A stretch of DNA of 64,000 nt from a virus. Its lineage: Duplodnaviria > Caudoviricetes. The stretch covers positions 21,950-85,949 of the IMG/VR virus record IMGVR_UViG_3300037067_009025; one strand, 5' to 3'. Shown in pieces: positions 5,011 to 24,684 of the stretch (the first letter of the stretch is position 1; each line of letters opens with the position of its first letter). Under the pieces are notes generated by a model. The model had not been told where the DNA came from. It saw only the letters and a list, made by a program, of their open reading frames with translations, and did not search any database. A program made the position numbers and the translations under genes.

Positions 5011-7277
5011 TTCATTATCTCCTTTAGAGTATTTACTATTTTTTCACACGATATTTTATTCATACACTGAGCAGACATGGCCTTAGAACTACATCTGCAA
5101 TTCCGCTCATTACAAGGATAACAAGAGTCCGATGGAACTATAACTGTGGTCTCAGAATATTTTCGCCAATCTGCCTGAATAGACGAGGGTAAAAATATTG
5201 TGGGCTTAGTAAATCCACCAGCAATATGCAGTATGGCTGAATCAACAGACAAACAATAATCACTTCGATTAACGACAGAAAATAATTCTCTGATAGTTGT
5301 CTTTCCACGTAAGTCCAAACAATTAGTATACCGAAGTTCTTTTTTAACACCCACATTTTTTATAACCCAAGATTCATCCCCAGCCGTATCTCCAACTAAA
5401 ACTATTTGCAACTCTGGAAAATTAGCAGCAATCGCATCAATCAATTCCTGTCGTTTTTCCCGAGGATATTCTCTCTTAGCATCGGCACTGGTGAGCCCTA
5501 AACATAATACTTTTTTATCATTATAAAAAAACTTATTAACATAAAATTTTTCTTCCTCAGATAATATGATATGCGGGCGTTGTCTAAGTAAATCCTCTCC
5601 CTTCAATCCAAATAAATGAGCCGTGGCCAATAAACGATGCTGCCTACACCAAGCCAGTTCATACTGAGAGAGCTTATAACTAATTTCAATCTTCCTATGA
5701 TATTGTTTTCTGTCAGTAATGCTATCTTTATAACTTAATGCCTGTCTAACATAAGGAAGATTCGCAAAAGCCTCGGGATACCTGGTGGCAACATCCACCA
5801 CATAACCACGTTGATATAGGGCCTCTAAAGAGGGCGTCAACATTAAAACATCACCCAATCCATCATTATCATAAACCAGGAGAGCATGTTTTTGAATCTC
5901 ATTATTTACAGGAACTATCTGAATGGAAGAATTGGTGATTGTTTTTACTTCTTCTGGAACTTTTAAAATTTGTTTCAATCTCAACTTAAAAGAAACCAAT
6001 TCTTTATAAAGTCCCTCCCAATTAAAATGTGTATAACAAGAACAATTATGGCATTGCCATAAATGAGAAGGAACAAATTGTCTACCAACACATGGATGAC
6101 AATTTACATTTGGTGTCATTGGATGACAATTTTTATAGGTGCTACACCGCCAGGTGGGGTCAAAATAATTCATCAGAGCAAAAGTCTTTTTTTCCAGAGC
6201 ACCAGCTATATGGAGAAACGAAGTATCAATCGTTACAACAAAATCCATTACAGCCATAAGGGCAAATAACTCTCGCAGAGAAACTTGTTTTGTTAAATCA
6301 ATACAATTTTGAAGATTATATTTTCTCAAAGAAGCAGTAAAAACAGTAAACCCCTTTGCTTTAAAAGCATTTATCTTTTCTTGTGCTAAAAATTCTGGCA
6401 TCTTGGCATCGGCTCTATCGCTATCAAATCCAAAAAATAATTTGTTTGGATATATCCCCCATTTTTGACGTGCGGTATTCAATTCATCAGTAGTAAAAAT
6501 TATTTCTGGTTTCAAAATTACCAAATCTTTTCTATCAATACCACATAAGGCAGCGACCGCAAAAATTCTATTTTGCTTATTAAGGTCAGACCTATAATCA
6601 TTCAACACCTGACCAAAGTGTAAAATTAAAATTTTCTCAAATTTACTGACATTGATATGCTTGCGGTCTGTAAAAATCCCAGAAATATAATCCAGATTAG
6701 CAAAACATTCCATCCGATGTTTTTCACAAAGAATAAAAACTTTCTTTCCCTGAGAGGCCAACGTTTTTAAACTTGGAATAGTCAATAAGTGGTCACCAAC
6801 ACCACCAGTAATTTCAACCAAAATATTATCTTTATCTTGGTCTGTCTTTGTCAAAAATTTTTCTAATTCGACATCTGTTTTAATCCGTGGAATTTCATAA
6901 CGAGTAAATTCAGAAAAAGCTCTGGCCAATCTTTCAGAATGGTCATCTGAAAAAACGGCCCGAAACTGAAGTGGATTCATAAAAAGGGTATGAATATACC
7001 AACGGTAGGGACATTCAACATAAATAACGTGGTCATCAATGATAGGATTCTCAGGAAGAGCTTCACAAATGTAAACCACACCAACGTTATTTTTTATAGC
7101 TTGAGCGACAAATGGATGGATTGTTTTTGAACTATCGAGATGGGAAGCAAAACATACCGTCAAAAGACGGCCTGCGGGGGCCCGCATAATGTAATTATTT
7201 TCTTTGACTAAAGCGGAGTGGTCAAGATTGGAAAAATGAATGTGAACATCATCAGAAATCAGTCTGATTGAGGACAT
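5007..7277 (-). CDS. Tandem GT9 (ADP-heptose:LPS heptosyltransferase-like) glycosyltransferase
   Basis: Two GT9 units: GGVGDHLLTIP...IDTSFLHIAGA...CHPC and DGLGDVLMLTP...VDSAILHIAGG...CYPC, plus an unassigned N-terminal domain of about 130 aa. Confidence 0.85.
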   Translation of the reverse strand: MSSIRLISDDVHIHFSNLDHSALVKENNYIMRAPAGRLLTVCFASHLDSSKTIHPFVAQAIKNNVGVVYICEALPENPIIDDHVIYVECPYRWYIHTLFMNPLQFRAVFSDDHSERLARAFSEFTRYEIPRIKTDVELEKFLTKTDQDKDNILVEITGGVGDHLLTIPSLKTLASQGKKVFILCEKHRMECFANLDYISGIFTDRKHINVSKFEKILILHFGQVLNDYRSDLNKQNRIFAVAALCGIDRKDLVILKPEIIFTTDELNTARQKWGIYPNKLFFGFDSDRADAKMPEFLAQEKINAFKAKGFTVFTASLRKYNLQNCIDLTKQVSLRELFALMAVMDFVVTIDTSFLHIAGALEKKTFALMNYFDPTWRCSTYKNCHPMTPNVNCHPCVGRQFVPSHLWQCHNCSCYTHFNWEGLYKELVSFKLRLKQILKVPEEVKTITNSSIQIVPVNNEIQKHALLVYDNDGLGDVLMLTPSLEALYQRGYVVDVATRYPEAFANLPYVRQALSYKDSITDRKQYHRKIEISYKLSQYELAWCRQHRLLATAHLFGLKGEDLLRQRPHIILSEEEKFYVNKFFYNDKKVLCLGLTSADAKREYPREKRQELIDAIAANFPELQIVLVGDTAGDESWVIKNVGVKKELRYTNCLDLRGKTTIRELFSVVNRSDYCLSVDSAILHIAGGFTKPTIFLPSSIQADWRKYSETTVIVPSDSCYPCNERNCRCSSKAMSAQCMNKISCEKIVNTLKEIMK

Positions 7278-13233: not shown

Positions 13234-13361
13234 GGTATCCTCACAATTTGAATCTTACATACTTAAATACGAATAACTGGGTAAAATATCATAGATTTTA
13301 GGCCAATAACCGAGGAAATACTCCCGCATTTTTATGCAAAAATGCAATAGTTAATCTGTGA

Positions 13362-13475
13362 CAGGACTGTATTACAGTCCTGGAACTGATTAACTACATA
13401 CTGGTTACAGACCTGTCCTGTATTACAGAACTGTCCTGTATACAGACTGTATTACAGTTCTGTAACTGTATACAG
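13362..13475. repeat. Cluster of five CTGTA(T)TACAG palindromes
   Basis: CTGTATTACAG at 13367, 13418, 13447; CTGTATACAG at 13436, 13466; the first lies in a 21-bp inverted repeat (13362-13382). Confidence 0.85.
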
Positions 13476-13649
13476 GCCGAGTCCAGGGGGTTTAAGAAAA
13501 GACGGGAAAGTAAACCGTGGGTTGACCAAAACCGCACTAAATAAACTCGGGCCCTCTTTCTCTTCTTAAAGGCTGGACTCACTCCCCTCCGCTTTCAGCA
13601 TTCGCTGAAACTCGGAGCGGGGCTGGAACAGTTCCTGGCTTAACCCTAA

Positions 13650-13711
13650 TTGTATGCTATCGTGCAACATATTGTAGGGAATCATACAATTCCTTGTATG
13701 GATTCATACAA
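13650..13711. repeat. TTGTATG/CATACAA inverted repeats (x4)
   Basis: Copies at 13650, 13683, 13694, 13705 in alternating orientation. Confidence 0.6.
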
Positions 13712-14268
13712 CCAGGGTGCATGAATTTTAAATGAGGTTCCATGCAAAAGCTCTGCCAAACGAGTGGCAAGGCTCGACGAGGAATGGTCTAAAAAGTCTG
13801 CCATCCCGTCTTGGACTCTCACAAATATGGAGCTTTTCTGTGCCAGGAAATTTTCCCAGGATTTTTTGGAAAAGTCCTGGATGGATACCCGAGGTCAGGT
13901 CGCAAATGTCCACCAGCCACAGGACATTTCTCGGGAGTGGACTATTTGTTCATTACTTGGTGAACATTCCAGTTGACAACTTGTTGACGACTTCAAAATT
14001 CCATTACTGGCAAAAGTTGTTCACAAAAATTCCAGTGCACATAGTGGGGCTATGGAAAACAGAGACTTTTCAAACTGGCCAAATTTTTTTCAGTATTTTG
14101 GAACAGGGCGCACCAGTAAGGGAGAGGGTCAGGTCGGGATTTGTCCCGAGCCTGGGACTATCCCTTTCAGGAAATTTGACTTTTCCCAGGGGCTCTGTGG
14201 TTGAGCGTAGAAACAAGTGCCTACTGAAAGAAAACGCTTTCCCAGGTCATGGGGCCCCTTTAAATTAT

Positions 14269-14306
14269 ACTTATATTATAACATATACTTATATATAGAC
14301 TTATAT
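14269..14306. repeat. AT-rich tract with three ACTTATAT repeats
   Basis: ACTTATAT at 14269, 14287, 14299 inside otherwise GC-rich DNA. Confidence 0.6.
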
Positions 14307-14670
14307 AAGGCCCTGCCCTTGAAAGAATAAAAAGCCCATGCTTTCCCAGCCTTTGGGCTGGCCTTGTGCTTTCCTGTTATTCTTTGGCCGTCCCTGGGCT
14401 GGGGCGGGTCACGTTTTGCCCCTGTTATCTTCTGGCCGTGAAGGGGTGAACCTTTGGGACTATTGGCAGACCTTCAGGGATTGCCAGCCTTTGGGGCCTG
14501 GCTGGGGCTGGCTGGTGTTATCCCTGGGCCTTTGGCCTTTGGTGCCAGGTCACGGGGTCAAGGTCAAGGGCTGGCCGTGTGCTGGGCCTATGGCCTGGGC
14601 CTGGGGTGCTGGGCTGCTATCCCCTGGCCTGGCCCTTTAAGCACGTGTTAAAATATCTTTGGCCGTGCCC

Positions 14671-14699
14671 TTGACAATTCAAAAGCGGGGTGCTATATT
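14671..14699 (+). promoter_or_regulatory. Sigma70-type early promoter
   Basis: TTGACA-17-TATATT with TGn. Confidence 0.75.
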
Positions 14700-14723
14700 T
14701 TAATCAGAAGGGAGGGCCGAACG

Positions 14724-14885
14724 ATGAAAAGCCAAAGCGAACAAAGAAGGCAGGAAGCGGAAAGAATACTGGAAGGGATAGAAAAAAGCGGGCGGGTTTA
14801 CTGGCTGGCCGTCTTAGTTAAAAGCGGGGCCCTTCTGGCAAGTGAAGCGGGTTATATGCTTTTGAATTGGGAGGGTTTAAAATGA
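14724..14885 (+). CDS. Small early protein (53 aa, not in ORF track)
   Basis: AGGGAGGG RBS, ATG at 14724; stop overlaps the next start (ATGA). Confidence 0.6.
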   Translation: MKSQSEQRRQEAERILEGIEKSGRVYWLAVLVKSGALLASEAGYMLLNWEGLK

Positions 14886-15103
14886 TTCCATTATTCAAAA
14901 ACACTGAAGAGGCTTTAAAATACGGGGCCAGCATAGCGGGAAACGCTGAAGCCCTGGCAGAACTGAAGGCAGAACGGGCCCGCCTTGTCCTGGAAGGGCG
15001 CAAACTGCAAGAGGCTGAAGACTGGGCGGGAGCCCTGGCCCTGGCAAGCGGTCAAAGTCAATTCACACGGGAAGCCCTGGAAGCTGCGGGGCTTAAAGGA
15101 TAA
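14882..15103 (+). CDS. Small early hypothetical protein
   Basis: TGGGAGGG RBS; start reassigned to MIPLFK. Confidence 0.6.
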   Translation: MIPLFKNTEEALKYGASIAGNAEALAELKAERARLVLEGRKLQEAEDWAGALALASGQSQFTREALEAAGLKG

Positions 15104-15131
15104 ACACACCACAAACAAGGGAGGGTTAAAA

Positions 15132-15473
15132 ATGGAACACGTCAAGCGCATTGCAAACCAAAAAGCACATGAACACGTTTCACGGCGGGAACCGTTCAAA
15201 GGGTCAAACCTTTACGCCGAATATAGAACGGTGAAACAAGATTCTTTCAGGGAGGCAATCAGGGAGGCTTTAGGGGAACCGCTGGAAGTTTACGCCGTCT
15301 TTTCATACGGTGAACACTTTCCCATTTATGCCTTTAAGGCGGGCCAGTGGTTCAGGAATAAGGATAAATACAGCGTGACCACTTCAAAACATCAAAGCCA
15401 GGCCAGGCCCTGGGACGTGTCACACTTTACAGACCTTGACACGGACGGAATAAAAGCGGTTTGCGGTCTTTAA
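15132..15473 (+). CDS. Conserved-looking phage hypothetical protein
   Basis: GGGAGGG RBS; EPFKGSNL, VFSYGEHFPIY, KYSVTTSKHQSQARP motifs. Confidence 0.65.
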   Translation: MEHVKRIANQKAHEHVSRREPFKGSNLYAEYRTVKQDSFREAIREALGEPLEVYAVFSYGEHFPIYAFKAGQWFRNKDKYSVTTSKHQSQARPWDVSHFTDLDTDGIKAVCGL

Positions 15474-15500
15474 CTTTAACCTTTAAAGGGAGGTCTTAAC

Positions 15501-15725
15501 ATGGAAAAAACTTTCAAAGCTGAAACGGTTCAAGTCTGCAAAGTGGCCCGCCGTTTAGGGGTCATTGCCGAAAAGAAAACCCTTTGCCCTGGCTGCGGGA
15601 AAGTAAAACACTATGAAGCCCTGGCCTTTGAACTGCGGGCCCTTGAGGGCAGAATTAAAGAGGTGAACACACCCAAAGCGGACGGGCTGGAATGGTGCCA
15701 GGATTGCCAGGGCGGGAGGGGATAA
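15501..15725 (+). CDS. Small Zn-finger-like early protein
   Basis: AGGGAGG RBS; CPGC...CQDC. Confidence 0.6.
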   Translation: MEKTFKAETVQVCKVARRLGVIAEKKTLCPGCGKVKHYEALAFELRALEGRIKEVNTPKADGLEWCQDCQGGRG

Positions 15726-15726
15726 G

Positions 15727-15921
15727 ATGAAAGAATTCCTTTTCATGCTTTGGCAGATTTTTAAAGTGGGCCTGGTCTGTATAATCTGGGCCCTGGGGCT
15801 GGTAGTCAATGCCTGGGCCCTGGCCCTTTGCGCCCTTGTGGGGATTATAGGCTTAACAGTGGCCTTTTTTGGGTCACTGATTTTTTTCAATATTATCATT
15901 CTTGCAATGGGTTTAAAGTAA
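15727..15921 (+). CDS. Small membrane protein
   Basis: 64 aa, almost entirely hydrophobic; GGGAGGGG RBS. Confidence 0.55.
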   Translation: MKEFLFMLWQIFKVGLVCIIWALGLVVNAWALALCALVGIIGLTVAFFGSLIFFNIIILAMGLK

Positions 15922-15974
15922 ATTGTCATAACTTTGACACGTGTTAAGTCTTAGGACAAAAGGGAGGTCATAAA

Positions 15975-16229
15975 ATGGAACTTTGCACACACGGCAAACC
16001 GATAACGGGCTATTGCCAGCCCTGCGCCCAGGCCATAGACGGCGGGGACAATATGCTTTTAATGGTCAAGATTCGGGAAGTATACGGGAATAAAAGGGTT
16101 TATGTTCAATCCTTCCAGGCTGGGGCTTTAAAGGCTTTGACTGGACGGGAAACCTTGACGGATTCAGATATAAAGGCACTTAAAAGCCTGGGTTATTCCT
16201 TCCAGGTGCTGGGGAATAGTATTTTATAG
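15975..16229 (+). CDS. Small early hypothetical protein
   Basis: AGGGAGG RBS, 84 aa. Confidence 0.6.
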   Translation: MELCTHGKPITGYCQPCAQAIDGGDNMLLMVKIREVYGNKRVYVQSFQAGALKALTGRETLTDSDIKALKSLGYSFQVLGNSIL

Positions 16230-16421
16230 GGTTTTACGGGGCAAGGAATAGGAAAGAATGAGGCGGGGAACACGTCCCGCCCGCATAAACCCAGCCCCTG
16301 GGCTATTCTTTCCAGTCCCCTATAGTCAAATAACCCTTTAAAACCCTGGTTTTCTTTATCCTATATACTGGGGCAAGCTGGGGACTTATTCACGGACTTT
16401 TTAACCTGGGAGGGCTTAACT

Positions 16422-16595
16422 ATGGCAAGGCAATCTTTAACGGAATTCATAAGGGCCAATAGGGCCGAACTTGACGGGGCCATAAAGCGGGCAGTCCCGA
16501 ACATTGGCAGCCTAAACGATTCAGACCGTAAAGACTGGGTTTTAAACGATGAAGGGCTTTACAATTGGGCCAGGTCTGAAGGGGTGAAGGTTTAA
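16422..16595 (+). CDS. Small early protein (57 aa, not in ORF track)
   Basis: CTGGGAGGG RBS; MARQSLTEFIRANRAELD...WVLNDEGLYNWARSEGV. Confidence 0.6.
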   Translation: MARQSLTEFIRANRAELDGAIKRAVPNIGSLNDSDRKDWVLNDEGLYNWARSEGVKV

Positions 16596-16628
16596 CCCTG
16601 GCCGTCTTTTAACAAGGGAGGCTTTACA

Positions 16629-16811
16629 ATGGAAGCGCAAAAAATGACACTGGCAGAAGCCAGGCAGATTTTAGGCAATCGGCCCCGCTGGGAACTTTTG
16701 CAGATAAAGCGGGCCTTGTCCATGCTGGAACTTTTGAACACCCCAGAAGAGGCCCAAAGGCTGGAAGCTGCAAGGCTTTTACTGGGTGCTATGCCTAAGC
16801 CCTGGGCCTAA
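16629..16811 (+). CDS. Small early hypothetical protein
   Basis: AGGGAGG RBS, 60 aa. Confidence 0.6.
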   Translation: MEAQKMTLAEARQILGNRPRWELLQIKRALSMLELLNTPEEAQRLEAARLLLGAMPKPWA

Positions 16812-16847
16812 GCCTGGGGAACCTTTAAACCGTGGGAGGGTCTTTTT

Positions 16848-17084
16848 ATGCGGTCTTTAATCGCTGGGGCCCTTGTGCTGGCCCTGGGCCTGGCCTTCAC
16901 TGGGCCAGCCTGGGCGGGCAAGGGCGGGAAGCTGAAAGCCTGCAATGATTCAAGCGGGCGGGTCTACTACGTGCCAAAAGCTGGGAGCGGGAAGGGGCTT
17001 TACTGGGGCAGCAGTCCGAAGACGGCCCAGCCCCTAAAAGACGGGCAGCGGGTTTATATCATACCAAAGCGGGGCAAGCGGTAA
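16848..17084 (+). CDS. Small exported protein
   Basis: TGGGAGGG RBS; signal peptide ending A-W-A; basic mature part. Confidence 0.55.
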   Translation: MRSLIAGALVLALGLAFTGPAWAGKGGKLKACNDSSGRVYYVPKAGSGKGLYWGSSPKTAQPLKDGQRVYIIPKRGKR

Positions 17085-17257
17085 AGCTGGCCCCTGGCTG
17101 GGAGGGGTGAACATGCGCTATTATGTCCTATTTTATGCGGGCCTTGTGGCCTTCTGGGTCTTCCTGGGCTGGCTGGTCTACGGGGCAGCCCTGCGGGCCG
17201 TGTCCCAGGCAATGGGCCAGGCTGGGGCCATGCTGGGGACTTTTTGAGCGGGTGACC

Positions 17258-17286
17258 TTGACACGCTGGGCCCTGGGTGTTATACT
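17258..17286 (+). promoter_or_regulatory. Sigma70-type promoter
   Basis: TTGACA-17-TATACT with TGn; no convincing ORF for about 740 nt downstream. Confidence 0.75.
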
Positions 17287-17950
17287 TGAAGGGGCGGGGC
17301 CCTGGGTGCCTGGGGTGTGCCTGGCAGCGGAAAGCGTTTTCCTGGGAAGCGTTTTCACGGGGACGGGGTGACTTTGGCCGAACCTTGAAGACGGGCCCCA
17401 GTGCTAAAGTGTCCAGTAAATGTCAAATTGATTTTAAGGGTTCAAACTGAAAATTGCCCCGCTGCAAAAGTGTATCAGTTTAAGGGTGTTTTAGGACTTT
17501 GACGTTTTGGCCGATTTTTCGCTTGTAGATTCAAAAACTGGGGATTTTTCTGGGGAAAATCTGGTATTTTCACAAGTGACCCGAAAACCCTTTGCCCCAG
17601 GTTATTCCAGCGTGTTTTTGCGGGTGTTTTTCGGCCCCTGGCGGGGCCCTGGCGGGCAGCTTTTAAACACCTGGCAGCATATTATAGGATGATGACGGGC
17701 CAAAGGCTGGGACAAAGCCCGTGACATTTAAGGCATAAAATTTTGATAATTTGATGACGTTTTCAGCATAAGGGCGGGCAGAATGCGGGACAAAGGCACG
17801 GACAAAAGGCGGGACAATTCGGGAGGGATTGAACGGTGAAAGCGTTTTCTCAAAAATCCATTCGGGCCAGCCTTCAGCAGAAGAGGTCAAGGGGCCCCAG
17901 AATTCCAGGGCCTGGCCCTGGCAGACTGAAAAATATTTTTTGCCTGGCCC

Positions 17951-17979
17951 TTGTTTTTTGGGCTGGGGTGTGCTATACT
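17951..17979 (+). promoter_or_regulatory. Extended -10 promoter for the AAA/VWA operon
   Basis: TTGTTT-17-TATACT with TGn. Confidence 0.6.
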
Positions 17980-18035
17980 TTATAATGCAATAGGGCAGCA
18001 CGAACAAACAAACCTTAAACCTGGGAGGGTTAAAA

Positions 18036-19031
18036 ATGACGCCGAAAAAATTACAAGAGATTTTAAAAGACGCCGTAAAGCACGGTGAACAATTGCTTAT
18101 CGTGGGCCCGCCTGGCATTGGCAAAACGGATATTGTCAAGGCGGTATGCAAGGACTTAGGGGCCGACATGATTATATCACACCCCGCCGTGTCCGACCCC
18201 ACGGACTACAAGGGTTTACCGTTCAAAGTGTCCGACAATTCACACGCCGAATTTTTGCCATTCGGGGAAACCTGGCGGGCTATTCAAGCGGACAAAGTGA
18301 CATTATGGTTTATTGATGACCTGGGCCAGGCTTCTGAAGCGGTTCAAAAAGCCCTTATGCAATTGCTTTTAGGGCGGAAGTTAAACGGTCACAAGTTAAG
18401 TGACAAAGTGGTTTTTTGCGGGGCCACTAATGACATAGGCCATAGGGCAGGTGTCACGGGACTTTTGGAACCCGTAAAATCCCGCTGGGATTCAATCGTG
18501 AACCTGGAACCGTCACTTGATGACTGGTGCACGTGGGCTTATGGCAATGGGCAGCCTGCGGAATTGATTGCATTCCTGCGGAACTGTCCCGAATTGCTTT
18601 CCCACTTTGAACCGACCAAAGCACTGATAAACCAGCCTTGTCCCAGAACGTGGGCCAGTGTTGGCCGTAGAATTGCCAGGAACCAGCAGGACTTTGACTT
18701 GATTGCTGGGGCCGTGGGGAAGGGTGCAGCCCAGGAACTTTTAGCATTCCTGGAACTGGCAGCAAAGGCCCCGTCCCTGGACGCTATCTTGATGAACCCG
18801 AAGACTGCGCCGATTCCTGAAAAGCCAGCCCTTCTTTATCTTGTGGCTGCGGGTTTGTCCCAGCGTGCTAAGAAGGATAATTTTAATCGTGTCTATCAAT
18901 ACCTTTTGAGGCTTCCCCAGTCATTCAGAACTATGGCAATCAAGGACGCTATCAATCGGGACAATTCCTTGACGGGCACGGACACTTTCACCGCTTATGT
19001 CACGTCTGCGGAAGGCAAAAGCATTTTATAA
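18036..19031 (+). CDS. MoxR/AAA_5-like AAA+ ATPase
   Basis: Walker A GPPGIGKT, Walker B WFIDD, sensor ATN, PCPRTW. Confidence 0.85.
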   Translation: MTPKKLQEILKDAVKHGEQLLIVGPPGIGKTDIVKAVCKDLGADMIISHPAVSDPTDYKGLPFKVSDNSHAEFLPFGETWRAIQADKVTLWFIDDLGQASEAVQKALMQLLLGRKLNGHKLSDKVVFCGATNDIGHRAGVTGLLEPVKSRWDSIVNLEPSLDDWCTWAYGNGQPAELIAFLRNCPELLSHFEPTKALINQPCPRTWASVGRRIARNQQDFDLIAGAVGKGAAQELLAFLELAAKAPSLDAILMNPKTAPIPEKPALLYLVAAGLSQRAKKDNFNRVYQYLLRLPQSFRTMAIKDAINRDNSLTGTDTFTAYVTSAEGKSIL

Positions 19032-19061
19032 ACCGTTTTGAAAACCTGGGAGGGTTTGAAC

Positions 19062-19907
19062 ATGGACAAAATTTTGACACGTGCCGTATTAGTGAAGGTA
19101 TCAATCAGCCAATTCAATCCGAAAAGGCAGGACGGGAAAACCACGGCGGAAGTCCTGGCCGACAAAGGCGCAAAGTCTACCGCTGGGGTGTGGATTAAAA
19201 ACCTGGTAGACCCTAAAGCCCTTGAGGCTATCAACACGCTGGCCCAGGCTGCACGGGCTGAACATTACAGGCTTTCGCTTCCCTGGGCGGATGAAGGCTG
19301 GCGGATTCTTCCCACGGCCATTTATATGAAGTATCAAGAGGCCATGAGGGAAAAACGGACGGGATTTTCCTGGGAGGTTCAAAAATTCCTGGATAAATAT
19401 CCCCAGTATATTGAAGAGGCAAAGGCAGCCTTAAACGGCATGTTTAACCCTGGGGACTATCCGACCCCTGAACAAGTCAAGGGAAAATTCGGAATGAAAA
19501 TTGACGTGGCCCCGCTTCCCTGCGGAAGTGATTTTCGGGTGTCCCTGGGAAGTGATGAACTGGCAGCAATGCAGCAGGATGTTGACCAGCGTGTTAAGGA
19601 AGCCACGGCCCAGGCAGTAAAAGACCTTTGGAACCGCCTGGCCCAGCCAGTAAAAGCAATGGTCAATCGTTTATCGGAACCCGATTCCATTTTTCGGGAT
19701 TCACTGATTGATAATCTGCGGGATATTATTGACCTGGTGCCGTCCCTGAATGTCACGGGTGACCCTGCACTTGACGCCGTGGCCCAGGAATGCAAGGTCA
19801 AACTTTCGGGCTTCAAGGCTGAAGACCTGCGGAAAGATAAAGCCCTGCGGAAGAGTGCAGCGGAAGAGGCGGACGCTATCTTGAAGAAAATGGAGGGCTA
19901 TATCTAA
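19062..19907 (+). CDS. DUF3150-like protein
   Basis: Helical protein between the AAA ATPase and the VWA-metallopeptidase, the usual context for this family; start reassigned to MDKILTR. Confidence 0.6.
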   Translation: MDKILTRAVLVKVSISQFNPKRQDGKTTAEVLADKGAKSTAGVWIKNLVDPKALEAINTLAQAARAEHYRLSLPWADEGWRILPTAIYMKYQEAMREKRTGFSWEVQKFLDKYPQYIEEAKAALNGMFNPGDYPTPEQVKGKFGMKIDVAPLPCGSDFRVSLGSDELAAMQQDVDQRVKEATAQAVKDLWNRLAQPVKAMVNRLSEPDSIFRDSLIDNLRDIIDLVPSLNVTGDPALDAVAQECKVKLSGFKAEDLRKDKALRKSAAEEADAILKKMEGYI

Positions 19908-21139
19908 TGACCCCGACACTTTCAAAAATTGACAAGGCAATGAACACCCTGGTTTTAGACCAGCCCTTTTTTGCCGTGTTGGCAATGCGCCTTGAACAAG
20001 TGGAAACCAAAGAAGTCCCGACCTTTGCCACGGACGGAAAACGTCTTTTAATCAATCCCGATTTTTGCGCTTCATTATCGGACGGGGAAGTTGTGACCGT
20101 CCTGGCCCATGAAGTTTTGCATTGTGCCCTGGGCCATATATGGCGGGCCCCTGCGGGTGCAGACCTTCAGACCTGGAACCTGGCAATTGATAATGAAACG
20201 AACTGGGAACTTGAAAAGGTAAACCGTCAAAATAGGGGTGTCCCGCCCTTCCCGTGGCCGTCCTGCGGGAAAGTCATGGAAGACCGCTTTGAGGGCTGGG
20301 CTGCGGAACGGGTTTATAAAGTCCTGGCAGAAGAGAAGGCCCAGCAAAAGGAAGACCAGCAGGGCCAGCAAGGCCAGGGAGGCGGTAAAGGGCAGCAGCA
20401 GAAGGCGGGAGGCCAGGGGCAGAATAAAGGGAAGGGGCAGCAGGGCCAGGGGCAGCCTGGACAAGGCCAGCAGCAGGGCTTTGGTGACATTATCCCAGTA
20501 AAGAAGGATGACCAGGCCCAGCTTAAACAGGAATGGGAACGGGCCGTTATTCAGGCGGAAAAATGTGGGCGGGAGCGTGGGGATATTCCAGGGGCCGTCA
20601 AGGAATTGATTCAAGAGGTGACCAGCACTAAAGTTGACTGGCGGAATATCCTGCGGGACTTCTTATCTACCACGGCAAAGGAAGACTGGAACTTTGCCCG
20701 ACCGAATGCCCGCTTTGAAGACACTGGCTTTTTAATGCCGTCCCTTTACAATGAACGGGCGGGCCACTTAGTTTTTGCAATTGATACCAGCGGGAGCACG
20801 TCAAGCGAATTGCTGGCCGAATACATAGCGGAAGCCCAGCAGGCCCTTGATGAACTGAACCCAGAAAAATTGACCCTTGTTTATTGTGACGCTAAGATTC
20901 AACACGTCCAGGAATACGAACCAGGGGACAAGATTGAACTGGAAACCTATGGACGGGGCGGGACGGATTTTCGGCCCGTGTTCAATCATTTTAACAAGGC
21001 GGATGAAGCCCCTAAAATCGTGGTTTACTTGACCGACCTGGAAGGGACTTTCCCAAAGGAAGCCCCAGAATATCCCGTCTTATGGGTGACCGAAAACCAC
21101 GGCCAGGAAGTCCCATTCGGGGACTTGATTGAAGTATAA
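19907..21139 (+). CDS. DUF2201-type metallopeptidase plus VWA-like domain protein
   Basis: TFATDG, HEVLH (HExxH), Gln/Gly linker, AIDTSGS MIDAS motif, GRGGTDFRP, YLTD. Confidence 0.85.
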   Translation: MTPTLSKIDKAMNTLVLDQPFFAVLAMRLEQVETKEVPTFATDGKRLLINPDFCASLSDGEVVTVLAHEVLHCALGHIWRAPAGADLQTWNLAIDNETNWELEKVNRQNRGVPPFPWPSCGKVMEDRFEGWAAERVYKVLAEEKAQQKEDQQGQQGQGGGKGQQQKAGGQGQNKGKGQQGQGQPGQGQQQGFGDIIPVKKDDQAQLKQEWERAVIQAEKCGRERGDIPGAVKELIQEVTSTKVDWRNILRDFLSTTAKEDWNFARPNARFEDTGFLMPSLYNERAGHLVFAIDTSGSTSSELLAEYIAEAQQALDELNPEKLTLVYCDAKIQHVQEYEPGDKIELETYGRGGTDFRPVFNHFNKADEAPKIVVYLTDLEGTFPKEAPEYPVLWVTENHGQEVPFGDLIEV

Positions 21140-21363
21140 ACCAGCAGCCAGGGGCCCAGTAAGGGCCCCAGGAATTGGAGGGTTAAAACATGTTAGTCTT
21201 TTCAGGGGATAGAAAATCTTTGACGGTCAAGGCTGGAAAGTTTTTCCAGAAAATTTTTGGCCATGCCTTTATCAAAATTGCTTTATGGGACGGATATAAA
21301 AGCCTTTGTTATTTTGAGGCGGGAACTTTCCGAATTGCCGTCTATTAAAAGGGAGGTGTAAAC

Positions 21364-21555
21364 ATGGCAGACTTTCGGCGTATTGTTAGGAAGGTCTATA
21401 AAACTACCGTGGTTTACAAGCTGGATGTTTTACTGGCTGAAGAAAAACGCTGGGCCCGCAAAGCCACGATTGCCAATACTAAACTGCGGGCAGTCCGAAA
21501 AAAGATAAACACCCTGGCCCAGGAACTGGCGCAAAAGACCGTAAGTGTCCAGTAA
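21364..21555 (+). CDS. Small coiled-coil hypothetical protein
   Basis: AGGGAGGT RBS, 63 aa. Confidence 0.55.
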   Translation: MADFRRIVRKVYKTTVVYKLDVLLAEEKRWARKATIANTKLRAVRKKINTLAQELAQKTVSVQ

Positions 21556-21610
21556 GGGCAGCCCGTGGGAGCGGGTTCAAACTGAAAACTTTTAAGGGAG
21601 GTATCAAACT

Positions 21611-22312
21611 ATGGAACCAATTTTTGAGGAAGTTTTGAAGGGCCATAAAATTGAGATTCATTCAGACGATGACGGTATCAATCCCCGCCATGAATGGGAT
21701 AATATGGGGACAATGGTTTGCTTTCATGGCCGTTATAACCTGGGAGATAAAGACCACGGATTCAAACAAAGCAATTATGATTCCTGGGCGGAACTTCAGA
21801 AGGCCATTATCAGGGAGCACGGGCCTTGTTTGATTGCCCCGCTTTATCTTTATGACCATTCAGGTATCACAATTTCAATGGGTGAATTTTCTTGCAAGTG
21901 GGATTCTGGACAAGTGGGCTTTATCTTTGTCCCGCATTCCAGGATTCGCAAGGAATATTCTTGCAAAAGAATTTCAAAGAAGACCCTGGAACGTGCCAAA
22001 GGGTGCCTGGAAAGTGAAGTCAAGGTATACGATGACTATTTAACGGGAAACGTTTACGGATTCAAAATTTTTGATGACGTGGACGGGGAAAATGAAATTG
22101 ATTCATGCTGGGGATTCTTTGGGGACTATGAAGAAGGGGCCCTGGCTGAAGCCCGTTCAATCGTGCATTCCAGGACGGACACTTTTAGGAATGCCGTTAG
22201 AGAAAAACTGCGGGAAGTGGAAAATCAAAAGAAGGCAGAACTGGCGGACAAGCTGGACGCTGCACTTGAACACCAGCAGGAACTTAACAAGGAAGTTTTA
22301 CAGGCAGCTTAA
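21611..22312 (+). CDS. Conserved-looking phage/ICE hypothetical protein
   Basis: NPRHEWDNMG, PLYLYDHSG, WDSGQVG, DSCWGFFG motifs; AGGGAGGT RBS. Confidence 0.65.
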   Translation: MEPIFEEVLKGHKIEIHSDDDGINPRHEWDNMGTMVCFHGRYNLGDKDHGFKQSNYDSWAELQKAIIREHGPCLIAPLYLYDHSGITISMGEFSCKWDSGQVGFIFVPHSRIRKEYSCKRISKKTLERAKGCLESEVKVYDDYLTGNVYGFKIFDDVDGENEIDSCWGFFGDYEEGALAEARSIVHSRTDTFRNAVREKLREVENQKKAELADKLDAALEHQQELNKEVLQAA

Positions 22313-22368
22313 TTCTAAAATACGGCCAGGGTGTCCAGTAAAGGCCAGGTCACAAAAGGCGGTTCAAA

Positions 22369-22530
22369 ATGAAATATAAAATCCAGTATAATGTTGGTAA
22401 AGTAAAATATCTTGTTAGTTTTTCAGACGGAACAAAAAGGCACAAGGACGGAAGCGAATTTTGGGATATTAAATGTTTTAAGTCAAAGGATAAAATGAAT
22501 AAGTTTATCCTGGGTTTAAATAAGCAATAA
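22369..22530 (+). CDS. Small hypothetical protein (53 aa, not in ORF track)
   Basis: MKYKIQYNVGKVKYLVSFSDGTKRHKDGSEFWDI; fills an intergenic gap. Confidence 0.55.
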   Translation: MKYKIQYNVGKVKYLVSFSDGTKRHKDGSEFWDIKCFKSKDKMNKFILGLNKQ

Positions 22531-22547
22531 CTTGAAAGGTTAAAATC

Positions 22548-22736
22548 ATGCTACAATTAGTCAAGGTGAATGCCATAAAACCCGAATACAGAATTGAGGG
22601 CTTATCCGCTGAACAAGTGCTAAGGATTCATTGCGCTTTAAAGGCCGTGCCACAAAAGCCCCTGGAAGTGGAAGTCATGGTGAACTGTTTGAACCAGGAC
22701 ATAAACCGTTTGAACAAGTCTGAAGGGAGGGAATAA
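22548..22736 (+). CDS. Hypothetical protein
   Basis: 62 aa in operon orientation. Confidence 0.5.
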   Translation: MLQLVKVNAIKPEYRIEGLSAEQVLRIHCALKAVPQKPLEVEVMVNCLNQDINRLNKSEGRE

Positions 22737-22737
22737 C

Positions 22738-22989
22738 ATGTGCTTTGAAATGGGACATAGTGCAGGATGTTTGTGTAATAATTCGGGACGTGAAAAGTCA
22801 AAAGCCCAGGGATATAATCCAGTATCCGAACATGGAAAACTGCGGTTAATTCCAGCCAATGAGCCCAGGAATATTTGCTGGAACTGCGGAAAACTTTTTT
22901 CGGAAGACCCAAAACATTTTCTTCCAAAGGAAGTGGGACAAAAACAATATTTATCCTGTAATCATTGTGGAAAGGTGAACCACTTATAA
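22738..22989 (+). CDS. Zn-ribbon protein
   Basis: AGGGAGGG RBS; CWNC...CNHC. Confidence 0.55.
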   Translation: MCFEMGHSAGCLCNNSGREKSKAQGYNPVSEHGKLRLIPANEPRNICWNCGKLFSEDPKHFLPKEVGQKQYLSCNHCGKVNHL

Positions 22990-23197
22990 ATTTCTTTAAA
23001 CACGGAGGGGCCACTATGACCGCCACGGCGAAAAAGGATATTGTTTCAGAATTGAAAGTTGTTTCCTTGCAGATTGAGTCTATTGAGGCCCAGCTTAAAA
23101 ATACGTTCGACCTGCATAAGAAAACAGAACTGAAGGAACAATTGAAAAACAAGTGGGCCCTGGTTGACAATTTGCTGGATAAATATCCGCCCAGGAC

Positions 23198-23226
23198 TTG
23201 ACAAAAGTCTGGAAATATGGTATACT
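23198..23226 (+). promoter_or_regulatory. Sigma70-type promoter
   Basis: TTGACA-17-TATACT with TGn. Confidence 0.8.
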
Positions 23227-23625
23227 TATCTTAACGGAGGAACGAATGAATAGTCAAGACCGACAACGAATTCAAGAAATGATTGATGCAGCCAAAGCAG
23301 GTTCAGCGCAAGTCATTAAGCTGGATGAATTCGGGGTTTTGATGTTCAGGAATATTTACAATGAAGCCACGATTGCGGGATTGACCATAACGATTCTTGA
23401 ACGTGGAAAGATTTTTCAAATTGAGCGGACATAGGGAGGTTAATATGACCTTAAAAGACTTGATAACAAAAAGCAATTTAAGTAAAGCAGACCTGGAAAA
23501 GGAAATTCTTTTCAGCAATGATGAAGAATTAAATAATCTTCATTCAGAAGCGCAAATTGCCGAACTGGGTAACACTGGAAAATTGGTTATCTATCCCTTA
23601 ACAATGAGCAGAACGGAAATTTAAG

Positions 23626-23850
23626 ATGAAGACCCGCTTTCGTGCCAGCATATATCTGGATGTTTTCATTGAAGGGGATAAACCCCTTGAAGAAGCACGG
23701 GCGGAAGCCACGGCACAAGTCAATGAACTGGTGCAATCAATCTCAGAAGTTGGCTTCAGGGAAGACTTGAACTATAGCAATCCTTATGTGGGAGGCGTGG
23801 CCCACTATGAACCAAAAAATTTGCTGAAGCCTCTGGACAAGGACATTTAA
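23626..23850 (+). CDS. Hypothetical protein
   Basis: 74 aa; one of several short ORFs between 23.0 and 24.2 kb. Confidence 0.5.
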   Translation: MKTRFRASIYLDVFIEGDKPLEEARAEATAQVNELVQSISEVGFREDLNYSNPYVGGVAHYEPKNLLKPLDKDI

Positions 23851-24218
23851 AATGTTAAGGATTAAATTGGATATTACAGACAAGGATGAACACAAACTTA
23901 TAACACACCTTGAACACGTGCAATGGGCCATTGCTGGCGGAGAAAAGGCTGGCCCAGGCTGGGAACTGGAAGGCGAAAATGAAAGTCAAGACGATTCTAA
24001 AAAAACTTAGGACTGAAAATCTTTTCGGAAAACCCGTTAAGATTCTTAAAGTGTCCAGTAAAGCCCCTAAAGAATTAGAGGGTAAAACTGGAACTTTAAC
24101 AAACCCATTTGCGGGATTCGAGGTTGAGGGTATTGGAATATTCCTGGATAACAATGAGCCCGATGTTTGCAATCTGGGCCTGGAAGATGATATTGAAATA
24201 ATTGGTTAATTTGTCCGC

Positions 24219-24425: not shown

Positions 24426-24454
24426 TTGACAAAATTAGAAAAGTATGCTATAAT
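24426..24454 (+). promoter_or_regulatory. Sigma70-type promoter
   Basis: TTGACA-17-TATAAT with TGn. Confidence 0.8.
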
Positions 24455-24465
24455 TAAAGGGCTTT

Positions 24466-24684
24466 ATGAACCTTGCGGACATGCTGAAAGAGATTAGATT
24501 TTTTGGAGTGAAGCCCACGCTTGATTCTATCGAGCAGGTAAAATCTCCCAGGTTAAGGTTAAAATTGAGAAGGCTATTTGAGGAAGCCTTTCATATTTTG
24601 AGAGTTGGAGATTATCGTTATCAGAATATCACGTGGCCCGATACTACCAGGCCCAAAGGAGAAAATCAAAATGGACAAGATTGA
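24466..24684 (+). CDS. Hypothetical protein
   Basis: 72 aa immediately after the promoter. Confidence 0.5.
   Translation: MNLADMLKEIRFFGVKPTLDSIEQVKSPRLRLKLRRLFEEAFHILRVGDYRYQNITWPDTTRPKGENQNGQD

Follow-up and report, generated by a model that had tools for sequence, protein, structure and literature searches.

Near-absence of CTC from the sense strand of an early gene region in an uncultured tailed phage, alongside loss of many other short words

The DNA described here is a window of 64,000 nucleotides (nt) from a phage of the Caudoviricetes (IMG/VR virus record IMGVR_UViG_3300037067_009025). The window corresponds to bases 21950–85949 of one 85,949-bp contig whose ends overlap, and all coordinates given below are window positions. 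The plus (+) strand of a 9546-nt interval, 14196–23741, contains exactly one CTC trinucleotide, at position 17849, with the flanking copies located at 14193 and 23742. The depletion is real and lies far beyond chance; it is strand-specific, extends through all reading frames and intergenic DNA, and is under selection. The interval holds ~25 small genes that all run in one direction, each with a GGGAGG ribosome-binding site ~8 nt before its ATG. Its gene order and predicted signals (Table 1) point to an early operon on host-type promoters and are consistent with a host-takeover or anti-defence picture.

Base composition predicts 100 CTC in the interval and a first-order Markov model 70; at the density seen in other +-coded genes, 10.5 per kb, there would be 101. 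Of all CTC-free gaps in the 85,949-bp genome, the two longest, at 5893 and 3656 nt, both fall within the interval, and the third-longest measures 806 nt. Directly upstream, the 962 nt from 13234 to 14195 hold 15 CTC against 14.0 expected, in line with a preliminary description of this DNA in which CTC was called ordinary outside the interval. All eight 4-mer contexts of CTC are absent or almost so. The sole copy, at 17849, has the context TCTCA; it sits at the 3′ edge of a motif copy that is inverted relative to the one in the non-coding leader.

Codon usage does not account for the deficit. A codon-preserving null was built from 22 early genes (7416 nt) by keeping the amino acids and shuffling synonymous codons in 500 replicates. 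With the region's own usage, which includes no CTC codon, the null yields 37.3±5.0 CTC, with a minimum of 24; with late-gene usage it yields 86±8. The observed number is 0 in both comparisons, so the concern raised in the preliminary description, that such a null might itself lie near zero, does not apply. Early coding DNA contains 0/0/0 CTC in its three frames, compared with 114/106/60 in late genes, and the non-coding DNA of the interval has 1 against 15.7 expected. Recounting thus bears out the reported single CTC and its spread over every frame and the intergenic DNA.

The complementary word behaves differently. GAG occurs 63 times on the + strand of the interval (45 GAGG, 11 GAGC, 5 GAGA and 2 GAGT), which agrees with the earlier figure of about 60, mostly GAGG. 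The statement that GAG is common holds only in part: the word is present, but it is itself depleted 2–3 fold: 137 copies would be expected overall, where 63 are seen, and 69 in coding DNA, where 41 are seen. Ribosome-binding sites account for only ~21 of the 63. The loss is concentrated in GAGA and GAGT, which are depleted ~10-fold, whereas GAGG is not depleted. GAGG and GAGC together occur 56 times, compared with 0 for CCTC and GCTC. This depletion of GAG was overlooked in the preliminary description, as were the loss of five palindromes from the whole genome and the avoidance of other words specific to the region.

The palindromes CCGG, CGCG, CTAG, GATC and GTAC have zero copies in the whole genome, where 79–316 of each are expected, and GCSGC, GGWCC, GGGGG and CCCCC are almost missing genome-wide. 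Together these losses make up unusually broad restriction-site avoidance for a single phage, and the lack of the five palindromes indicates heavy restriction pressure. The early region shares every palindrome avoidance of the genome; its G+C content is 0.50 compared with 0.41, and its codon usage also differs. In addition, the early interval is without ~25 further short words on both strands. These include TCGA, CGAG/CTCG, CACAG/CTGTG, CCAAG/CTTGG, CTGAC/GTCAG, GCAAC/GTTGC, GGTGG/CCACC, GATGG/CCATC and AGCCG/CGGCT, among others. TCGA alone has one copy in the early zone and 149 in the rest of the genome.

Counts of 5-mers extend this pattern. Early coding DNA lacks 62 5-mers that contain neither CTC nor GAG, where the Poisson expectation under the codon-preserving null is 1.8, and 40 of the 62 have a reverse complement that is likewise missing. 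A late set of equal size lacks 22 5-mers, of which 19 are symmetric pairs that all contain a word absent genome-wide. Counted as double-strand words, 30 are absent from the early region and 7 from the adjacent late DNA. Avoidance of double-strand words is the dominant signal in the interval, and it is the signature of restriction pressure on DNA; no other part of this genome shows it nearly as strongly.

A second group of words is retained in one orientation only. Such a pair was defined as an asymmetric 5-mer that occurs at least 8 times one way and never the other. Early DNA has 14 of these pairs against 2.5±1.5 in the null, and the late control has 4 against 2.0. Over the region, CAGCAG, the classic EcoP15I word, occurs 13 times and CTGCTG 0 times.

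The edges of the purged zone were mapped by placing 18 double-strand words without CTC along the window. The left edge is sharp: the last outside word lies at 14195, the last outside CTC at 14193, and the zone begins at 14196. No word of the test set occurs for 8.9 kb after 14195, a stretch that includes the 528-nt non-coding leader absent from the 5-mer coding set. This leader (14196–14723) has 0 CTC where 5.5 are expected and none of the purged double-strand words. The right edge is graded. TCGA occurs at 23107, further words follow at 24118, 24355 and 24530, and normal density is reached from ~25.0 kb. CTC likewise returns gradually, at 23742, at 23831, in a hairpin cluster, and at 24545 and 24993. 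A sharp left and a graded right edge are expected if the left DNA end enters the cell first and exposure falls with distance. No recognisable promoter is present at the left edge, the first lying at 14671, ~475 nt downstream, and a sharp edge in promoter-less DNA is unlike a transcript-defined feature. The ~25 extra purged words, which share this left edge, lend weight to the preliminary proposal of special selection on early or first-entering DNA.

Eight contigs with homologues of the ATPase encoded in the region (L001–L008) were compared by the observed-to-expected ratio (O/E) of CTC in the syntenic early module. In L002 (ATPase identity 81%) the ratio is 0.44 and in L001 (75%) 0.41, the lowest of the 64 trinucleotides in both; in L003 (72%) it is 0.40, the third lowest of 64. 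L004 (69%) shows only a short CTC dip at 12–14 kb, and no sustained CTC bias was found in the four more distant contigs (55–68% identity). Repeating the count in related genomes, as the preliminary description had proposed, recovers the depletion in the three closest contigs, in weaker form, and not in the distant ones. By these contig comparisons, a modest sense-strand CTC bias is a trait of this small clade, and the present phage has taken it to completion. No gene is exclusive to the CTC-depleted relatives.

The reading favoured here, tentatively and with somewhat less than even confidence, is that the interval is a restriction-proofed leading takeover module whose GAG sites are kept co-oriented. 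It would be the early host-takeover module of a lytic 86-kb phage, positioned at the genome end that enters the cell first. While only this leading DNA is inside, and before its products neutralise the defences, any nuclease target within it would be lethal. Selection would then have removed a large catalogue of short target words at the DNA level, with the rest of the genome keeping them. GAG would be fixed on the sense strand by the GGGAGG sites, and the opposite orientation (CTC on the + strand) would be purged instead; with a GAG fixed in each ribosome site, converging sites could be avoided only by removing the reverse orientation. All GAG-containing asymmetric sites would thereby be co-oriented, and nucleases that need inverse sites (type III or type ISP-like) could not cut. 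We infer that this end enters first, that host nucleases are the selective agents and that orientation dependence explains the strand asymmetry. A separate cost argument, in which GAG is simply harder to remove than CTC, was rejected, since 42 GAG outside Shine–Dalgarno (SD) sites remain though they are synonymously replaceable in all frames. Of the three candidates in the preliminary description, namely enzymes needing head-to-head sites, a CUC-cutting RNase, and freedom of GGGAGG sites from CUC pairing, the first fits best. The double-strand purge, the sharp edge in promoter-less DNA and the excess of one-orientation pairs speak for it; the word, at only 3 bp, does not.

Several points weigh against this restriction-based model. 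The avoided unit is the trinucleotide CTC in every context, not the usual 5–6 bp, and an all-context loss looks more like the work of a single agent specific for the trinucleotide than the summed effect of several longer sites. We know of no orientation-dependent restriction enzyme that reads a 3-bp word. The CTC at 17849 would form inverted pairs if the site were GAG, and it is harmless only if the site is GAGS-like. The relatives are also difficult to accommodate. L001, L002 and L003 share a 2.5-fold CTC depletion in the same module and avoid different palindromes (CCGG in L001; GATC in L002; CGCG, GATC and GCGC in L003), and none of the three has an extra early-specific double-strand purge. 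Bias without such a purge speaks for a CTC pressure that differs, at least in part, from strain-specific restriction and that may have preceded the restriction purge as a process of its own. A partial bias, moreover, protects little against a head-to-head enzyme. The CTC bias of relatives that lack the purge is the chief reason why confidence in a unified DNA-level model is restrained, and it leaves room both for an RNase and for immunity to a takeover nuclease of the phage itself. It is possible, if on the unlikely side, that the takeover module was rewritten to escape an undescribed, strand- or orientation-dependent activity that reads GAG/CTC, and that it is one case of a wider phage habit. 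Such an activity could come from a translocating nuclease that cuts where sites converge, from an enzyme that modifies or nicks single-stranded DNA, or from an RNase specific for CUC.

An RNA-level alternative holds that an mRNA-interferase-type RNase, of the host or possibly of the phage, cuts single-stranded RNA at CUC, and that the early transcripts, which have to function before the phage can disable the enzyme, were cleared of CUC; the double-strand purge would then be a separate restriction effect in the same region. RNases with 3-nt specificity exist, such as MazF at ACA and MqsR at GCU, though we know of none specific for CUC. An enzyme of this type would explain most simply why a single trinucleotide is hit in all contexts, and the bias does affect the sense strand of an operon read in one direction, with every frame and the transcribed intergenic DNA included. 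Partial depletion, as in the relatives, would pay proportionally under RNA cleavage. The phage RNA ligase and CCA-adding enzyme suggest that RNA damage is part of its conflict with the host, and the sole CTC lies in a non-coding spacer that is perhaps not transcribed. The explanation is a serious rival but a less probable one: the zone begins ~475 nt upstream of the first recognisable promoter and within 3 nt of the double-strand purge edge, transcripts from the promoters at 23198 and 24426 contain CTC, no such RNase was recognised among the early proteins, and the 2–3-fold loss of GAG is left unexplained. Immunity of the phage to its own takeover nuclease seems improbable; in this scheme, host DNA or RNA would be attacked at a CTC-containing word by an early enzyme of the phage, and the early region, being present during the attack, would be built without that word. 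It would fit a CTC bias common to relatives under different host restriction patterns, which suggests a lineage-intrinsic cause, and it has a counterpart in T5, where it is an open question how the phage's own first-step transfer (FST) DNA is spared during destruction of the host DNA (PMC10644984). However, none of the early genes showed a recognisable nuclease fold, and the small early genes are mostly not common to the CTC-depleted relatives. Late DNA and transcripts are also full of CTC, so such an enzyme would need to be switched off in time.

Damage to the template strand is a distinctly improbable alternative. A DarT-like enzyme acting at 5′-GAG-3′ would leave lesions on the template (−) strand that block early transcription, with non-template lesions being tolerated. 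This would cover both the strand specificity and the restriction of the bias to early genes, and the partial loss of GAG from the sense strand would fit a weaker non-template cost. The proposal is purely analogical, and a GAG-specific enzyme of such a kind is not known to us. Short strand-specific DNA words are indeed read by DarT enzymes, with DarT2 reading TNTC and DarT1 favouring two G one base apart (PMC11543638). Other GNG words, however, are not depleted on the template strand. It is highly improbable that CTC was under no direct selection and was lost as a by-product of composition, codons or other words, or because the module was imported from a donor. The differing G+C content and codon usage and a left edge as sharp as a recombination junction would suit such an origin, but the codon-preserving and non-coding expectations remain far above what is observed. 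The shared genome-wide palindrome avoidance indicates that the region evolved in the same host background, and a donor origin merely shifts the question elsewhere.

The third preliminary candidate, that CTC was lost to avoid CUC pairing with the GGGAGG sites or RNA structure in general, is scarcely credible. Its appeal lies in the very uniform and strong sites of the early genes and in the fact that any Watson–Crick partner of the GAG core contains CUC. Both folding tests went against it. The accessibility predicted for 20 SD sites, as the probability of being unpaired, is 0.302 for the native sequence against 0.303 for synonymous shuffles carrying ~37 CTC, and half of the shuffles match or beat the native accessibility. 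The early coding RNA (14724–23624) folds more stably than the null, at −26.8 compared with −25.3 kcal per 100 nt (z = −4), the opposite of structure avoidance. Deep inside 1-kb genes, at a distance from every SD site, CTC is missing to the same degree, and the CTC-biased relatives mostly use early SD sequences without GAG.

Several elements of these readings have precedents. Known type III sites are 5–6 bp long. Co-oriented sites defeat enzymes that need inverted ones (cited in PMC10644984), as Meisel reportedly also described in 1992. The EcoP15I words of T7 (CAGCAG), all in one orientation, resemble the 63:1 ratio of GAG to CTC and the 13:0 ratio of CAGCAG to CTGCTG here; in T7, by contrast, the bias spans a genome transcribed one way, whereas here it concerns a 3-mer in every context over only 9.5 kb. 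ACA-less mRNAs are immune to MazF, which illustrates how the absence of a 3-nt word from the sense strand protects against a sequence-specific RNase. The present zone differs in passing a recognisable transcription start and in coinciding with a double-strand purge. In SPO1, the host-takeover module lies in a terminal region and holds about two dozen small early genes whose promoters and ribosome sites are unusually strong. The gene number is similar here, but there is no homology to SPO1 and no word avoidance has been reported in that phage.

The closest parallel is with T5-like phages, which withstand restriction–modification systems of types I to III, CRISPR and Ssp unless sites lie in the ~9.7-kb FST repeat; strand bias as a known escape from type III enzymes is cited in the same work (PMC10644984). 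As in the T5 FST (repeats of ~9.7–10 kb), ~10 kb of small takeover genes with predicted promoters for the host RNA polymerase are combined here with long, repeat-rich non-coding stretches. In T5 the defences act only through sites in the FST block, a regime that would purge sites in this region alone (PMC10644984). The two differ in that the T5 pre-early genes form two opposed units, whereas all genes here run in one direction. The T5 source consulted describes the FST only as being without sites for particular enzymes and mentions no ban on ~30 words or on a trinucleotide of one strand. No sequence similarity to T5 was found, and membership in a T5-type class cannot be claimed for a phage known here from assembled contigs alone. 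In T7-like Marinomonas phages of the Autographiviridae, absence of a motif from the leading region is by itself enough for escape from a type I system (PMC12455610). That case likewise involves a motif missing from the first-injected region though present elsewhere in the genome, but it concerns one bipartite motif and one host, compared with many words, one of them strand-specific, here (PMC12455610). In its scale of ~30 words, its razor-sharp boundary and its one-strand trinucleotide ban, the present region is unlike all described cases.

Table 1. Features of the early region and its margins (window positions)
Feature	Start	End	Strand	Description
CTC-free zone	14196	23741	+	One CTC (17849), 63 GAG
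Zone purged of ~25 extra words on both strands	14196	24117	.	One TCGA at 23107; next word at 24118
Non-coding leader	14196	14723	+	G+C-rich; repeated CCWGG-type words; A+T-rich TATACTTATAT repeat
First consensus sigma-70 type promoter (predicted)	14671	14699	+	TTGACA-17-TATATT with TG
Ten small early genes	14724	17247	+	44–113 aa; GGGAGG ~8 nt before ATG
Non-coding array	17248	18035	+	Repeats GAAAGCGTTTTC and GGGACAAAGGC; holds the sole CTC (17849)
Promoter (predicted)	17258	17286	+	Within the non-coding array
Further likely promoter	~17951	~17979	+	Within the non-coding array
MoxR-like AAA ATPase	18036	19031	+	
DUF3150-like protein	19062	19907	+	Weak Pfam match; beside the ATPase in relatives too
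DUF2201 protein	19907	21139	+	Metallopeptidase-like N-terminal domain and VWA-like domain
Ten more early genes	21190	23624	+	52–233 aa; mostly unique to this phage
Promoter (predicted)	23198	23226	+	Consensus sigma-70 type
Graded right margin	23742	25000	+	Over 1.3 kb, 3 double-strand words and, hairpin excluded, 4 CTC
Terminator-like hairpin closing the early unit	24215	24275	+	Two anti-Shine–Dalgarno-like motifs, CCTCCTCCC and CTCCTCCC, forming the first CTC cluster

The assignment of the interval to an early region, already made in the preliminary description, agrees with predicted host-type promoters at 14671, 17258 and 23198 and with the uniform GGGAGG sites. Another consensus sigma-70 promoter is predicted at 24426. 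Most of the small proteins occur in this phage only. None of the ten small early proteins has a Pfam match above cutoff, a search of the ESM Atlas with the 233-aa early protein gave unnamed clusters only, and no strongly acidic, Ocr-like protein is present among the small early proteins. A hairpin equivalent to the one that closes the early unit was not found in the relatives L001 and L002.

Non-coding parts of the region are rich in repeats. Near-palindromic GAAAGCGTTTTC and its complement occur at 14229–14249, 17328–17362 and 17830–17850, the sole CTC adjoining one of the copies, and GGGACAAAGGC repeats occupy 17700–17815. Both repeat types are likely protein-binding arrays. A co-oriented bipartite motif, GTGTCCAGTAAA followed ~29 nt on by GGGTTCAAACTGAAAA, is found at 17409–17453, 21545–21588, 22331–22375 and 24051–24065; it is a candidate class of phage-specific (middle) promoters whose first copy lies within the CTC-free zone. 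Divergent non-coding DNA at 13340–13480, next to the purged zone but not in it, carries a cluster of inverted and direct repeats based on CTGTATTACAG that may represent a regulatory or packaging site.

Some words are enriched in the interval. CCWGG is ~5-fold more frequent than in late genes (77 CCTGG and 40 CCAGG, compared with 58 and 46 in 39 kb of late DNA), and CTGG, GGCCC/GGGCC and GCGGG are likewise enriched in 14196–23741. Bans on neighbouring words, namely CTGT, CTGA and CTGC[C/T] in the case of CTGG and CCWGG, probably produced these enrichments as a side effect, although CCWGG may have a function, for example as a binding or methylation site. A role of CCWGG or CTGG as a Chi-like signal was rejected, as the words are enriched in both orientations.

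The trio of MoxR-like ATPase, DUF3150-like and DUF2201/VWA proteins (18036–21139) is kept in many uncultured phages; a scan of viral contigs with the DUF2201 protein returned no relatives. Among cultured phages, the best ATPase matches come from genomes of ~72–79 kb, which look N4-like. Related ATPase genes also occur in Burkholderiaceae genomes and plasmids. The nearest homologues of the ATPase in genomes are in Cloacimonadota-binned contigs, at ≤50% identity; these contigs are GATC-rich and free of CTC bias, and they therefore tell nothing about the host of this phage. Early ribosome sites in the two closest relatives mostly avoid GAG and read AAGGGGG, AAAGGA or AAAGGG (L001, 8522–15023; L002, 1364–7805), with L001 genes further downstream using GGAG or GAGG. 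These GAG-avoiding sites are the opposite solution to the uniform GGGAGG of this phage.

Beyond the early region, the + strand of the genome encodes a family A DNA polymerase, a UvsX-like recombinase, an RNA ligase, SbcCD-like nucleases, a CCA-adding enzyme and a primase-helicase. Capsid and protease genes lie upstream on the − strand. A tRNA scan found no tRNA genes in the window, and an Rfam scan of the region and window gave no match. No close relative is present among deposited phages, megablast of the region against phage records gave no match, and the GT9 protein had no match in genomes. The nearest terminases, at 26–28% identity, come from Streptomyces BE1 phages, whose genomes carry direct terminal repeats of ~11 kb (PMC5764925). 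Contig depth inside the region relative to outside is ~1.2–1.6 fold, with no clear doubling, in two other runs, a measure that is invalid for repeats. Two X2 contigs break at 14177/14197 in a way that resembles an end, yet with the coverage at hand chance would be expected to produce such a break.

Contigs of two runs from other studies, one landfill and one freshwater, contain near-identical DNA, and several X2 contigs are identical to the window over 14197–16347, 17685–18329, 18924–19491 and 21588–22691. Since the sequence of the region is reproduced in independent landfill and freshwater assemblies, it is not an artefact of one assembly. A T/C difference at 14196, the first base of the purged zone, is the sole difference from an 85,849-nt contig of the probable source run over 16 kb, and C at this position was also read in two other runs. 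Among 38 listed strain differences (of ~550), 0 create a CTC, where only 1.5 would be expected, too few to be informative. No RNA run carrying the phage was found among the sequencing runs listed, the RNA label of four wastewater runs being a guess only.

If the restriction-based reading is correct, the sequence of a leading region would be a record of the specificities of host defence, and its missing words would list what the host cuts. That list would include specificities found in no database, in this case a three-letter word read on one strand. The injected end and the early module could then be located in uncultured phage genomes from sequence alone, and the finding would bear on the open question of how first-step DNA survives in T5. 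The region would also represent a natural segment recoded to evade many nucleases at once while encoding ~25 proteins, which may be relevant to the design of restriction-proof DNA for transforming recalcitrant bacteria and to phage engineering.

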